Below are positions 8,511 through 20,494 of a stretch of DNA of 32,000 nucleotides, piece after piece. The DNA is from Rhodobacter capsulatus SB 1003. Its GTDB lineage: Bacteria > Pseudomonadota > Alphaproteobacteria > Rhodobacterales > Rhodobacteraceae. Position 1 is the stretch's first letter, and every line of letters begins with the position of its first letter. A program made the position numbers and the translations under genes. The DNA lies in NCBI RefSeq assembly GCF_000021865.1, contig NC_014034.1, positions 1,800,001 through 1,832,000 of the forward strand, in the 5' to 3' direction. A model generated the notes under the pieces. That model saw nothing but the letters and a program-made list of their open reading frames with translations. It ran no database searches and was not told the origin of the DNA.

Positions 8511-8593
8511 TGGTGCGGGTGAAGGGACTCGAACCCCCACGCCAAGGCGCCAGAACCTAAATCTGGTGCGTCTACCAGTTTCGCCACACCCGC
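8511..8593 (-). tRNA. tRNA-Leu, anticodon TAG
   Basis: The reverse complement reads GCGGGTGTGGCGAAACTGGTAGACGCACCAGATTTAGGTTCTGGCGCCTTGGCGTGGGGGTTCGAGTCCCTTCACCCGCACCA. Features: 7-bp acceptor stem GCGGGTG/CACCCGC, anticodon stem CCAGA/TCTGG with loop TTTAGGT (anticodon TAG), long variable arm, GGTTCGAGTCC T-loop and encoded CCA. Confidence 0.9.
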
Positions 8594-8776: not shown

Positions 8777-9307
8777 ATGGACAGGCAGGCCACGGGGCGC
8801 GGGGAGGGCGGGGCCAGGGCGCCCGCATCTTCGGCGTCCGCCTTCACATTCGATTCCCGTCTGGGCGCCGAGGGCGCGCATGGGGTGGCGGGCTTCGCCA
8901 TGGGCTCGCGCGTGGCGACGATGGACGGGCTCTTGCCGGTCGAATTCCTGAACCTGGGCGACCGGATCGTCACCCGCTCGGGGATGCGCGTGCTGCGCGG
9001 CCTGTCCAGCCTGCCGCTGGTGTCGCGGCTGGTCGGCATCGCGCCCGGGGCGCTGGGGCATGACCGGCCGGGGCAGGCGATGGTGCTGGGATCGGGCACG
9101 CAGGTGCTTTTGCGCGACTGGCGGGCCGAGGTGATGTTCGGCACCGCCCAGGCGCTGGTCGCGGTCGAGCGGCTGATCGACGGGCAGTTCATCACCCGCA
9201 TCACCGGCCGCAAGATCCGCATCTTCGCGCTGCATTTCGAGGCGCCCGAGGTGATCTATGCCGATGGCGTCGAGATCGGCTGCAAGCCCCTGGCCTTGCG
9301 TAGCTGA
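8777..9307 (+). CDS. Hint (Hedgehog/intein-like) domain protein
   Basis: 176 aa. GFAMGSRVATMDGLLPVEFLNLGDRIVTRSG...IAPGALGHDRP...VLLRDW...ALVAVERLIDG...IFALHFEAPEVIYADGVEI fits the stand-alone Hint-domain proteins common in Rhodobacterales. AGGAAG SD lies 5 nt upstream. Confidence 0.7.
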   Translation: MDRQATGRGEGGARAPASSASAFTFDSRLGAEGAHGVAGFAMGSRVATMDGLLPVEFLNLGDRIVTRSGMRVLRGLSSLPLVSRLVGIAPGALGHDRPGQAMVLGSGTQVLLRDWRAEVMFGTAQALVAVERLIDGQFITRITGRKIRIFALHFEAPEVIYADGVEIGCKPLALRS

Positions 9308-9320
9308 CAGGGGGCGAAGC

Positions 9321-9371
9321 GCGTATTTGCCCCAAGAAAAAACGCATCGGCTTTTCTTGGTGAAAATACGC
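9321..9371. repeat. 51-bp palindromic intergenic repeat, copy 1
   Basis: GCGTATTTGCCCCAAGAAAAAACGCATCGGCTTTTCTTGGTGAAAATACGC. Arms GCGTATTT..CCAAGAAAA / TTTTCTTGG..AAATACGC pair as a long hairpin. It lies between the convergent Hint gene and nnrD. See copies at 13029 and 20320. Confidence 0.85.
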
Positions 9372-9395: not shown

Positions 9396-10250
9396 TCAGA
9401 GGTTCAGCGCGCGGAAGACCTTTGGCAATTCCTCGGGCAGATCCTCGGCGATCAGGCCGGGGCCGAAGCTCAGCGCGGCTTCGACATGCAGCCAGGTGCC
9501 GGTGCAGGCGGCCTCGAACGGTGTCAGCCCGCGCGCCATCAGCCCGGTGATGATCCCCGCCAGAACGTCGCCCGATCCGGCCGTGGCCAGCCAGGGCGCG
9601 GCGCGGGGGCCGGTGGCGCTGTGCACGGCGGCCGCGCCCGACGGATGGGCGATGGCGGTTTCGGGGCCCTTGAGCAGCACGGTGCAGTTGATCCGCGCGG
9701 CGGCCTGGCGGGCGGCGGCGACGCGGGGCAGGCTGCCGTCTTCGAGCCCCTGCGCAAGGTCGGGGAACAGGCGGCGGAATTCGCCCTGATGCGGGGTGAT
9801 CACCGTCTGATCATGCATCGCGTTGAACAGCGGGCCGGGATCGGCGGTGAAGGCGGTCAGCGCATCGGCATCCAGCACGGTGGGACGGCGCAGCCAGAGC
9901 GCGGCGGGCACCATTTCCAGCGCCCGCGGCAGGCCCAGCCCCGGGCCGAGGCAAAGCGCGTTCAGCCGCGGGTCCTGAAAATGGCCGCGCAGGGAATAGG
10001 CATCGGGCAGGGCGGTCAGCATGATCGCGGTCAGCTGCGCCGCATTCTCGGCCAGGCTGATCTGCGGACAGGCGAGCGTCACCAGACCCGCCCCCACTCG
10101 CAGCGCGGCCCGCGCGGCCAGACGGGCGGCGCCGCCCTTGCCGGGACTGCCCGCCAGAATCAGCGCATGGCCGTGGTCGTATTTATGCGCCTCGGGCGAT
10201 TTGGCGAGGCGGGAACGCATCTCCTCGGTCAAGGTGATCTGGCGGAACAT
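9396..10250 (-). CDS. nnrD: ADP-dependent NAD(P)H-hydrate dehydratase (YjeF C-terminal domain) as a separate ORF
   Basis: Track ORF 9396-10778 overlaps nnrE in another frame. The plausible start is ATG 10248-10250 with GGAGGGG SD about 4 nt upstream. MFRQITLTEEMRSRLAKSPEAHKYDHGHALILAGSPGKGGAARLAARAALRVGAGLVT... and a C-terminal GSGDVLAGIITGL motif are typical of the carbohydrate-kinase-like dehydratase domain. Product 284 aa. Confidence 0.8.
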   Translation of the reverse strand: MFRQITLTEEMRSRLAKSPEAHKYDHGHALILAGSPGKGGAARLAARAALRVGAGLVTLACPQISLAENAAQLTAIMLTALPDAYSLRGHFQDPRLNALCLGPGLGLPRALEMVPAALWLRRPTVLDADALTAFTADPGPLFNAMHDQTVITPHQGEFRRLFPDLAQGLEDGSLPRVAAARQAAARINCTVLLKGPETAIAHPSGAAAVHSATGPRAAPWLATAGSGDVLAGIITGLMARGLTPFEAACTGTWLHVEAALSFGPGLIAEDLPEELPKVFRALNL

Positions 10251-12956: not shown

Positions 12957-12975
12957 TCGGCGGGATGGTTCGGGA

Positions 12976-13004
12976 AAGGGCGCCTTTGGGCGCCCTTTTC
13001 TTTT
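12976..13004 (+). terminator. Rho-independent terminator of glnBA
   Basis: AAGGGCGCC-TTTG-GGCGCCCTT: a perfect 9-bp stem followed by TTCTTTT, 20 nt after the glnA stop. Confidence 0.7.
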
Positions 13005-13028: not shown

Positions 13029-13079
13029 GCGTATTTGAGCCAAGAAAAAACCCGGCGCTTTTTCTTGGTTCAAATACGC
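13029..13079. repeat. 51-bp palindromic intergenic repeat, copy 2
   Basis: GCGTATTTGAGCCAAGAAAAAACCCGGCGCTTTTTCTTGGTTCAAATACGC, located between the glnA terminator and fabD. Its 3' flank CTCGGGGGTCCGG resembles the copy-3 flank CACGGGGGTGCGG. Confidence 0.85.
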
Positions 13080-13173
13080 CTCGGGGGTCCGGCGGCGCGA
13101 ACGCCCGGCGGCTTCCGGTTGCTCCGGACGCTGCGTCAAGTTAGAGAAGGCCAGATTTGTCAAGGAGGCGGGC

Positions 13174-14103
13174 ATGAGCGTGGCATGGGTGTTCCCCGGT
13201 CAGGGGGCGCAGACTATCGGGATGGGCAAGGCGCTGGCCGAGGCCTATCCGGCGGCGAAGGCGGTCTTTGACGAGGTCGACGCGGCTTTGGGCGAAAAGC
13301 TGAGCGCGCTGATCTGGGAGGGCGAGATCGAGCGGCTGACCCTGACGGCCAATGCGCAGCCGGCGCTGATGGCGACCTCGCTCGCCGCCGTTGCGGCGCT
13401 GAAAGCGGAAGGCATCGAGGTGGGGCAGGCGGCCTTTGTGGCCGGGCACAGCCTTGGGGAATATTCGGCGCTGTGTGCGGCGGGGGCCTTGAGCCTGGCC
13501 GATACGGCGCGGCTTTTGCGCATCCGCGGCGAGGCGATGCAATCGGCGGTGCCGGTGGGCGTGGGCGCGATGGCGGCTTTGCTGGGGCTCGATTTCGCCA
13601 CCGCGGCCGAGGTTGCGGCCGAGGCGGCGCAGGGCGAGGTCTGTCAGGCCGCGAATGACAACGACCCGGCGCAGGTGGTGGTGTCGGGCCACAAGGCGGC
13701 GGTCGAGCGCGCGGTCGAGATCGCCAAGGGCAAGGGCGCGAAGCGGGCGGTGATGCTGCCGGTCTCGGCGCCCTTCCACTGCGCGCTGATGCAGCCCGCC
13801 GCCGACCGGATGGCCGAGGCTTTGGCGGCGGTGACGGTGTCGGCGCCGGTCGTGCCGGTGGTGGCGAATGTGCGCGCCGAGGCCGTGTGCGACCCCGCGA
13901 CCATTCGTCAGCTGCTGGTGGAACAGGTCACCGGATCGGTGCGCTGGCGCGAGTCGGTGCTGTGGATGGTGGGCCAGGGCGTGACCGACTTCTGCGAAGT
14001 GGGCGCGGGCAAGGCGCTGTCGGGGATGATCAAGCGCATCGCCAAGGACACCACGCAAAAGGCTGTCGGCACGCCCGAGGATGTGGCGGCGCTGAAGGGC
14101 TGA
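13174..14103 (+). CDS. fabD: Malonyl-CoA:ACP transacylase
   Basis: 309 aa. FPGQGAQ, active-site GHSLGEYSA, AAGGAGG SD 5 nt upstream. Confidence 0.95.
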   Translation: MSVAWVFPGQGAQTIGMGKALAEAYPAAKAVFDEVDAALGEKLSALIWEGEIERLTLTANAQPALMATSLAAVAALKAEGIEVGQAAFVAGHSLGEYSALCAAGALSLADTARLLRIRGEAMQSAVPVGVGAMAALLGLDFATAAEVAAEAAQGEVCQAANDNDPAQVVVSGHKAAVERAVEIAKGKGAKRAVMLPVSAPFHCALMQPAADRMAEALAAVTVSAPVVPVVANVRAEAVCDPATIRQLLVEQVTGSVRWRESVLWMVGQGVTDFCEVGAGKALSGMIKRIAKDTTQKAVGTPEDVAALKG

Positions 14104-14183
14104 AGAGGCTACGGGCTTTGCGCCCCCAGACCCCCGCAGGATATTTGTGGCAAGATGAATGCCACGTCAGGAAGGGCTTGCAG

Positions 14184-20370: not shown

Positions 20371-20423
20371 CACGGGGGTGCGGGGGTGTGAAACCCCCGC
20401 TTCTGCCGCGGAAATCTGGTCGA

Positions 20424-20455
20424 AAGGGTCGGGGTTTTCCCGGCCCTTTTTCTTT
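20424..20455 (+). terminator. Intrinsic-terminator-like hairpin between g2 and g3
   Basis: AAGGGTCGGG-GTTTT-CCCGGCCCTT: a 10-bp stem with one G-U pair, followed by TTTTCTTT. It is preceded by a second hairpin, GCGGGGG-N7-CCCCCGC (20380-20400). Confidence 0.5.
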
Positions 20456-20494
20456 GGCCGGGGCCTTGGGCCGGGCCGCGACGAGGAGAACGGG

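Follow-up and report, generated by a model that had tools for sequence, protein, structure and literature searches.

Probable REP/BIME-like intergenic repeats in Rhodobacter capsulatus and its relatives, with one copy inside the gene transfer agent operon

A stretch of 32,000 nucleotides from Rhodobacter capsulatus SB 1003 (NC_014034.1, positions 1,800,001 to 1,832,000 of the forward strand), which is referred to in its whole length as the window, contains three copies of an intergenic inverted repeat of 51 nt, one of them inside the operon of the gene transfer agent (GTA). These 51-mers are probably, at a likelihood which we would put at about 60%, inverted doublets belonging to a dispersed, non-coding, chromosomal repeat family of the R. 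capsulatus group, similar to the REPs (repetitive extragenic palindromes), the bacterial interspersed mosaic elements (BIMEs) and the REP doublets forming hairpins (REPINs) of other bacteria. The results support a lineage-specific family which evolves clearly in concert and whose unit, AT-rich and not palindromic, is unusual; repeats of this general kind are well known. The family is apparently undescribed in a model organism, R. capsulatus being used as such for GTAs and for the decay of puf-operon mRNA. The three copies are as follows (loci used for comparison are given by their L numbers):

9321 to 9371, no strand assigned: doublet copy 1, read exactly; 61 bits with the covariance model; orthologs in L091 (DSM 1710), L060 (SP108) and L024 (R. 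viridis)
13029 to 13079, no strand assigned: doublet copy 2, read exactly; 68.5 bits with the covariance model; identical copy in L066
20320 to 20370, no strand assigned: doublet copy 3, inside the GTA operon; 68.4 bits with the covariance model; orthologs in L001, L002, L010 and L026

A preliminary description, made from the letters of the window, had placed three copies at these positions, and the sequences were read exactly as claimed. The pattern GCGTATTT-N25-45-AAATACGC gave 3 matches in the window versus 0 in 100 dinucleotide-preserving shuffles, and a repeat finder grouped the three copies as one family (D2). Scanning with a covariance model (R1), which was built from 118 family members, yielded scores of 61–68 bits for the three copies; since the next best match in the window reached only 10.6 bits, exactly three full copies are present. 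All of them fold as long hairpins on both strands, with z-scores from -3.7 to -7.1.

The family is built from an AT-rich unit of about 22 nt which is not itself a palindrome, G[CG][GA]TATTTG-NN-CCAAGAAGAA, also written as G[CG][GA]TATTTG-NN-[CG]CAAG[AG][AT][GA]AA, and the 51-mer consists of two such units, inverted across a GC-rich loop of 7–12 nt. The core of the doublet can be written as GCGTATTT-NNN-CCARGAARAA-loop-TTYTTCYTGG-NNN-AAATACGC, where the search pattern itself dictated the outer 8 bp, whose invariance is therefore uninformative. The hairpin seen in the window was recovered in the family, and its extent of 51 bp has to be revised, as the palindrome usually runs a few bp further: the consensus of the flanks is itself palindromic (..AAGG-core-CCTT..), with CCCCCG/CGGGGG and CGGCGG/CCGCCG as alternatives. 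Similarly, the stem, formerly given as about 20 bp with one small bubble, was found at about 21 bp, often lengthened by complementary flanks; the "bubble" is a variable internal loop of 3 x 3 nt, since pairing between the NNN triplets is limited to about half of the cases. The inner helix is 97% paired in the family alignment. Pair 27-48 is A-U in 61 members, G-C in 46, G-U in 3 and something else in 8, and in Rubellimicrobium the pairs 25-50 and 26-49 switch from A-U to U-A. The apical loop (73% GC) has no dominant motif. Enlarged loops, which contain an extra hairpin (e.g., GCCCTCCCCGAAGGGAAGGC) or an insert of about 50 nt, were encountered in L020 (1290–1382), L048 (2866–2945), L076 (4516–4595) and L099 (4722–4818); the apical loop therefore tolerates insertions. 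Copies which do not fit the exact search pattern include a second subfamily, CCCCCG-GGATATTTG-NN-CCAAGGTGAAAG...CTTTCACCTTGG-NN-CAAATATCC-CGGGGG, in which the outer arms compensate each other (GGATATTT..AAATATCC, with GAGGTATTT..AAATACCTC and GAGATATTT..AAATATCTC as further variants). Covariation therefore extends to the outer arm, which leaves TATTTG-NN-[CG]CAAG, present in each of the two arms, as the genuinely common part.

Units were found as inverted doublets, as singlets, in tandem or mosaic arrays, and as neighbours of a GC hairpin, to which they are connected by an ACCCCCG/CGGGGGT linker. Half-elements are common, and in many of them the GC hairpin and then the ACCCCCG linker stand in front of the unit, as in CCGGGGCtctGCCCCGG-ACCCCG-GGATATTTG.... 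The 3' flank C(T/A)CGGGGGT(C/G)CGG, which had been noticed behind copies 2 and 3, is indeed present, and its nature is to be corrected: it is a recurrent companion module of CGGGGGT linker and GC-rich hairpin, which stands at many other copies as well and is the mirror image of the hairpin-linker companion of a singlet in the window. Arrays comprise tandem doublets about 90 nt apart, unit-unit-inverted unit, and a singlet with a doublet and then a companion hairpin behind it; a "nested insertion" at L006, L014 and L087 was considered and rejected, these loci being a direct singlet, then doublet and companion hairpin. In view of the singlets, the arrays and the companions with their linkers, the organisation is therefore mosaic, as in BIMEs. 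A second GC-rich repeat (e.g., CGGGGGGTGAATTGGCCGAAGGCCAAGAGGGGGGCAGCGCCCCCC), which may be a separate repeat family, often abuts the element (L033, L049, L078, L094, L096, L117 and others); its terminal GGGGGCagcGCCCCC hairpin sometimes precedes a run of T, in the manner of a terminator.

The family interpretation had been made dependent on the presence of further copies in the genome, and such copies exist: at least 120 loci matched a permissive exact pattern (outer arms and CC..GG only) when one genome per species was scanned. About 108 of the loci listed belong to the R. capsulatus complex (SP36, SP18, DSM 1710, SP108), R. viridis JA737, Pseudothioclava arenosa and two Rubellimicrobium species; the other dozen are scattered matches in metagenome-assembled genomes, with unrelated interiors and about as many as expected by chance. 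A strict full-length pattern detected the orthologous copy between the GTA genes g2 and g3, with a different loop, in two IMG/VR contigs, and the covariance model added about 18 copies in the collected loci which escape the exact pattern. The counts on position, subtype and orthology given below were taken from loci which had been fetched because they contain a copy. In 903 kb of these loci there are 137 doublets and about 31 singlets; after subtraction of one ascertaining copy for each locus, about 26 extra doublets and the 31 or so singlets are left. Together with the density in the window, 3 doublets and 1 singlet in 32 kb, the extra copies lead to a rough estimate of 100–350 elements per genome.

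BLAST searches with the element against plasmid and phage records gave no Rhodobacter plasmid and no phage match; besides one short, unrelated-looking match (E = 5), they gave plasmids of Marinibacterium anthonyi (Paracoccaceae) and Sagittula stellata (Roseobacteraceae), both with full doublets and companions. The Marinibacterium copy is one of only two plasmid-borne members found in PLSDB; it is situated on plasmid pLA6_007 (L203, 601–659), as a full doublet with companion between parA and parB of a partition operon. Related forms are also present in many Rhodobacterales GTA clusters; the family is probably part of a wider Rhodobacterales superfamily.

Genes around the copies were called with a codon-based gene finder trained on the loci. 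The 113 classifiable copies lie between convergent (52), tandem (58) or divergent genes (3), and none is inside a predicted gene, versus 458 tandem, 125 convergent (18%) and 124 divergent (17.5%) background intergenic regions. The positional bias which had been anticipated is thus real, both coding sequence and the promoter regions between divergent genes being avoided. The nearest stop codon lies at a median distance of 26 nt, the downstream start codon at one of 63 nt.

From the 116 copies whose flanks were usable, 51 distinct sites can be told apart; 31 of these are occupied in at least two genomes, and 3 are shared with Pseudothioclava, so that occupancy is old and stable. Each of the three copies in the window has a counterpart at its site in DSM 1710, SP108 and/or R. 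viridis. No empty orthologous sites were seen in a BLAST search with the flanks, which was biased, the loci having been fetched for containing a copy. At one site a single copy is present in SP18 (L041) and two in SP36, R. viridis and DSM 1710 (L007, L074, L086).

At orthologous sites the interiors diverge several-fold faster than the flanks. In 111 orthologous pairs, which are phylogenetically non-independent, divergence amounted to 9.6% for the flanks, 7.3% for the inner stem, 21% for the apical loop and 37% for the NNN triplets, and the length of the apical loop differed as well in 46 of them. Two-sided changes (A-T/G-C, A-T/U-A) preserve the complementarity of the stem: 43 changes in the inner stem altered both arms with preservation of Watson-Crick pairing and 71 altered one arm, whereas for arms changing independently the expected number of double changes is about 6. 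These changes, the split at pair 27-48 and the switches in Rubellimicrobium bear out the covariation which had been looked for between the arms. Pairing-preserving point changes with retention of the loop are found between copy 1 of the window and L060, copy 3 and L026, and copy 2 and its R. viridis ortholog (L024), in which AAGAA/TTCTT replaces AAAAA/TTTTT and the loop is nearly identical.

The subtypes of the stem are genome-specific at orthologous sites. AAGAA/TTCTT is found in 18 of 20 copies of SP108 and in all 8 of Pseudothioclava, AAAAA/TTTTT in most copies of SP36, SP18, DSM 1710 and the window; R. viridis is mixed, and the subtype of Rubellimicrobium is TTGAx/xTCAA. Of the 31 shared sites, 17 have A-T in some genomes and G-C in others at the same pair. 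Genome-specific subtypes at orthologous sites indicate concerted evolution or turnover. Replacement of the whole interior was also found: where the subtypes differ and the flanks are at least 90% identical, loop identity is 0.57–0.60 (examples are L079/L116 and L013/L046), compared with 0.53 in a random control and 0.87–0.95 in pairs of the same subtype. Within L004–L122, parallel or concerted change of both arms was observed at a dozen or more independent loci.

Multicopy dispersal and inverted repeats of about 21 nt around a tiny core could also be expected of a classical MITE (a miniature transposable element with inverted repeats), that is, a deletion derivative of an insertion sequence, with the two arms as terminal inverted repeats and mobilisation in trans by a DDE transposase; the polymorphism of one versus two copies (L041 versus L007, L074 and L086) would fit as well. 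We consider this explanation very improbable. No direct repeats, and hence no target-site duplications, were present at the flanks of 121 copies, which are inverted complements (AAAGG/CCTTT, CCCCCG/CGGGGG) or unrelated; the collected loci contained no parent insertion sequence with matching ends and transposase, and no transposase gene between inverted units. The gene between the inverted singlets of L004, which had been a candidate, was rejected as it encodes a DEAD-box helicase. Moreover, the copies are stable at orthologous sites across species and genera, none lies within a gene, and single units have a strand-specific companion hairpin, unlike solo terminal inverted repeats. Of the behaviour originally called "REP/BIME- or MITE-like", the first half can be retained on account of position, multiplicity, doublets and mosaics, and the second half is not supported, with neither target-site duplications nor, in the collected loci, a transposase-flanking arrangement found.

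A different explanation would be that the DNA is bound by a protein of the host chromosome or nucleoid (gyrase, IHF or a MucR-like protein, or a factor for topology or replication), with sites at the ends of genes because supercoils build up there; the palindrome would then amount to a 13-bp site, TATTTGnnCCAAG, present twice in inverted orientation. In favour of this, TATTTG and CCAAG hardly vary in either arm from genus to genus, in contrast to other positions; units are also found as singlets, which are conserved at orthologous sites; the element stands out as AT-rich in a genome of 66% GC; and the copies are enriched between convergent genes. A precedent is provided by the BIMEs of Escherichia coli, which bind gyrase and IHF. 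However, the spacing of the half-sites varies (loops of 7–12 nt, up to about 50 nt), which a rigid dimer on duplex DNA would not tolerate, and positions outside the conserved motif co-vary between the arms, which indicates that pairing, and so hairpin formation, matters. Inspection, as opposed to a formal scan, gave no match to the IHF consensus WATCAANNNNTTR, and an informal comparison of the unit by eye with the consensus sequences for IHF, CtrA, LexA, DnaA, FnrL and sigma-54 revealed no resemblance. A site for a host chromosome or nucleoid protein is quite improbable; the variable arm spacing together with the covariation would rather argue for a role of the hairpin or cruciform than of merely two duplex half-sites.

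The element could perhaps be a dedicated RNA element, selected mainly as bidirectional terminator, attenuator or barrier to 3'-exonucleases or RNases, and determining mRNA ends and segmental stability, with g1-g2 expressed differently from g3 onward in the GTA operon. This is conceivable and, on balance, rather unlikely. The short distance to stop codons and the enrichment between convergent genes would be in agreement with it, and so would the lack of a separate canonical terminator in 48 of the 64 tandem regions with a doublet; in 10 of the others the element precedes a terminator, and in 6 it follows one. Flanks are often of the type AAAGG-stem-CCTTT, which amounts to a weak A-tract/U-tract arrangement. 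The fold of the sense strand is the more stable one in 40 of 57 tandem cases, a proportion which is confounded by orthology and strand skew, and 24 of 30 singlets are in sense orientation to the upstream gene, which falls to about 6:2 independent tandem sites once orthologs are collapsed. There is also the precedent of the intercistronic hairpins of the R. capsulatus puf operon and of the E. coli REPs, which stabilise upstream mRNA. On the other hand, the doublet is not an intrinsic terminator, as its stem is AT-rich instead of GC-rich and at most 3–4 T follow, within the extended stem, in place of a U-tract of about 7–9 nt; a terminator scan of the window reported none at the three copies. 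Furthermore, an RNA element alone would leave unexplained the genome-specific subtypes at fixed sites and the replacement of whole interiors.

Several observations weigh against an RNA element and, at the same time, against the interpretation as REP/BIME-like repeats. On the sense strand in tandem contexts, 11 G.U versus 8 A.C pairs were counted, which is no RNA-strand signal; the G-U pair of copy 3, which had been taken to suggest selection on RNA or DNA structure, is thus not diagnostic of selection on RNA as opposed to DNA. Canonical terminators are not depleted beside the elements (27% versus 20%), and where a terminator is present in tandem cases, the element comes after it in 6 of 16, glnA of the window among them. 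With terminators not depleted and the element sometimes downstream of them, a role at the level of the mRNA is only plausible. Further points bear on the REP/BIME-like interpretation itself. The evidence for mobility is indirect, consisting of the one-versus-two-copy polymorphism and the replacement of interiors, and the parallel changes from G:C to A:T in both arms could be due in part to a mutational hotspot of specific context, the same on both arms, instead of a trans-acting factor. A tblastn search with E. coli RayT, of the Y1/HUH transposases (RAYT) which accompany REPs and are flanked by them, against 1.4 Mb of loci gave nothing better than E = 2.9, which is a weak test restricted to these loci. 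Finally, the Rhodobacter unit is not an imperfect palindrome of 20–40 nt as REPs are, and has no GTAG/CGTC head; only the doublet is palindromic.

In addition to the doublets, the following features of the window are relevant:

13080 to 13111, plus strand: companion module of copy 2, a CGGGGGT linker and a degenerate GC-rich hairpin
14113 to 14159, plus strand: singlet member, consisting of GC hairpin (GGGCtttGCGCCCCC), linker ACCCCCGCA and half-unit GGATATTTGTGGCAAGATGAA; orthologs in L066 and L024
20371 to 20400, plus strand: companion module of copy 3, linker CACGGGGGT and GC hairpin GCGGGGGTgtgaaACCCCCGC; kept beside the unit in many GTA loci
20424 to 20456, plus strand: intrinsic-terminator-like hairpin, GGGTCGGGGttttCCCGGCCC then TTTTTCTTT, a short distance 5' of the portal gene g3; not a member of the repeat family

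According to Pfam, the upstream gene encodes a Hint-domain protein at copy 1, is glnA at copy 2 and is the large terminase gene g2 of the GTA at copy 3; on the other side, downstream or convergent, are the genes for NAD(P)H-hydrate dehydratase, fabD and the GTA portal. The distances from stop codon to element, formerly stated as 13 nt (Hint), 72 nt (glnA) and 10 nt (g2), were the same when remeasured. Copy 1 is located between convergent genes, whose stops are at 9307 for the Hint-domain gene and at 9396 for the NAD(P)H-hydrate dehydratase gene, the latter on the minus strand. A tRNA gene (8514–8593, minus strand), about 290 nt upstream of the Hint-domain gene, is the only match in the window at the Rfam gathering threshold, which returned no family for the repeats; an Rfam scan by E-value around copy 2 gave only sub-threshold matches to generic miRNA hairpins. 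Copy 2 lies 3' of glnA, past the terminator hairpin of that gene (about 12970–13003), and upstream of fabD (start at 13174). This terminator (12970–13003, plus strand; GGGCGCCtttgGGCGCCC then TTTTCTTTTG) is of canonical type; it was missed by the simple terminator scan and picked up by a separate custom scan. The companion hairpin of copy 2 is perfect in DSM 1710 (L066: CCGGGGGCGcgaaGCCCCCGG). The singlet (unit at 14139–14159, companion at 14113–14127) is situated between the stop of fabD (14103) and the start of fabG (14178); it is a fourth, half-length member of the family, which is missing from the preliminary description and is kept in DSM 1710 and R. viridis. A scan for sigma-70 promoters between 8600 and 21000 of the window gave 0 sites.

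The spacer between g2 and g3 comprises 185 nt and contains, after the stop codon of g2 and 10 nt, the doublet, CACGGGGGT, the GC hairpin (20380–20400) and the terminator-like hairpin with TTTTTCTTT (about 20424–20456), followed by g3. Unit-like motifs were found 3' of g2 in 24 of 77 GTA loci of related Rhodobacterales. The terminator-like hairpin was followed through the g2-g3 spacers of L123–L202: of the 32 closest loci, those with a g2 at least 76% identical, 28 have it, and of all 77 loci, 37. Relatives outside the capsulatus group whose g2 is 80–86% identical have only the 3' half-unit at the same position, and in more distant GTA relatives the module stands in the opposite orientation. 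In Caulobacter crescentus, a terminator designated terGTA, which consists of three GC-rich direct repeats of 150 bp, is located directly downstream of the first large GTA gene and is bypassed by the anti-terminator GafZ (PMC11150451). By position, the g2-g3 spacer of the R. capsulatus GTA (RcGTA) would appear to be analogous to terGTA: both are structured, inverted-repeat, non-coding regions after the first large gene of the GTA cluster (PMC11150451). The direct repeats of terGTA differ in having no sequence relation to the Rhodobacter family, and terGTA belongs to the GTA cluster, whereas the Rhodobacter repeats occur genome-wide and are not GTA-specific.

Two facing units can form a hairpin or cruciform across the GC-rich loop, and the elements are situated at the ends of transcription units, where they are kept for long times at the same orthologous sites. 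With respect to the spread and the function of the REP/BIME-like family, we infer the following. Concerted evolution could proceed by in-place replacement or gene conversion, perhaps driven or policed by a trans-acting protein with specificity for the invariant TATTTG..CCAAG duplex. On transcription from either side, the stable hairpin might act as a barrier at the 3' end or as a weak, bidirectional aid to termination; as DNA, the element may provide the ends of genes with a structured, AT-rich site. In the GTA operon, the copy would add a hairpin to a spacer which already has a conserved terminator. A more far-reaching version, which is speculative and unlikely, is that the elements are substrates of an undiscovered enzyme of the Rhodobacterales (e.g., of the HUH type, or another structure-specific nuclease or recombinase), which would rewrite them in place at TATTTG..CCAAG beside the GC hairpin, and that the g2 copy, the GC hairpin and the terminator would constitute a terGTA-like checkpoint, read through by GafA-modified RNA polymerase. 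If true, this would mean genome-wide concerted evolution at fixed sites, and conserved repeat units of the Rhodobacterales which were co-opted into GTA regulation.

A family with at least 100 copies per genome should provide markers for strain typing, candidate 3'-end or processing elements for the annotation of transcriptomes, and a natural system for concerted evolution of palindromic repeats outside the gamma-proteobacteria. Masking of the elements would remove spurious calls of open reading frames, such as those with the recurring pseudo-peptide QEKT..FFLVQIR. The copy beside the conserved internal terminator after g2 also offers a concrete test of whether RcGTA, like the Caulobacter GTA (CcGTA), depends on anti-termination.

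Among known repeats, the Rhizobium-specific intergenic mosaic elements (RIME) and the Correia and ERIC palindromes are likewise lineage-specific and mosaic, form long hairpins when transcribed and are sometimes found within operons. Compared with these, the Rhodobacter elements are much shorter (51–67 versus 100–150 nt), have no known sequence similarity to them and lack a TA or other target duplication. The literature searched, whose coverage is incomplete, contained no earlier description of the family, nor of any other REP-like repeats in R. capsulatus or elsewhere in the Rhodobacterales; it is described neither in a survey of non-coding RNAs in 26 genomes nor in the survey of GTAG/CGTC REPs by Di Nocera et al. 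2013 (PMC3733652), in which Rhodobacterales are not named. The latter reported alpha-proteobacterial, CGTC-tagged REPs, mostly as head-to-head dimers, with stems of 8–9 bp, loops of 4–5 nt, a CGTC head and a CCA tail (PMC3733652). These share with the Rhodobacter elements the intergenic location, the palindromic structure and the predominance of head-to-head dimers, and differ from their arms of 21 nt, loops of 7–12 nt and conserved motifs TATTTG and CCAAG. REPs are also GC-rich, whereas the Rhodobacter stems are AT-rich in a GC-rich genome and have a conserved 3 x 3 internal loop. In most other respects the family agrees with the REP/BIME of Enterobacteria and the REPINs of Pseudomonas: the elements are short, extragenic, multicopy, chromosomal and hairpin-forming; they are located at the 3' ends of genes, between convergent or tandem genes; they have a species-specific consensus; and they show a replicon bias, without a match on the Rhodobacter plasmid or phage records searched. 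As in REPs and REPINs, dispersal is multicopy and extragenic, with inverted doublets which evolve as a population within the genome, and as in BIMEs these are accompanied by singlets and by mosaics with other motifs, here the linker with its GC-hairpin companion, the tandem pairs about 90 nt apart and the arrays of unit, unit and inverted unit.

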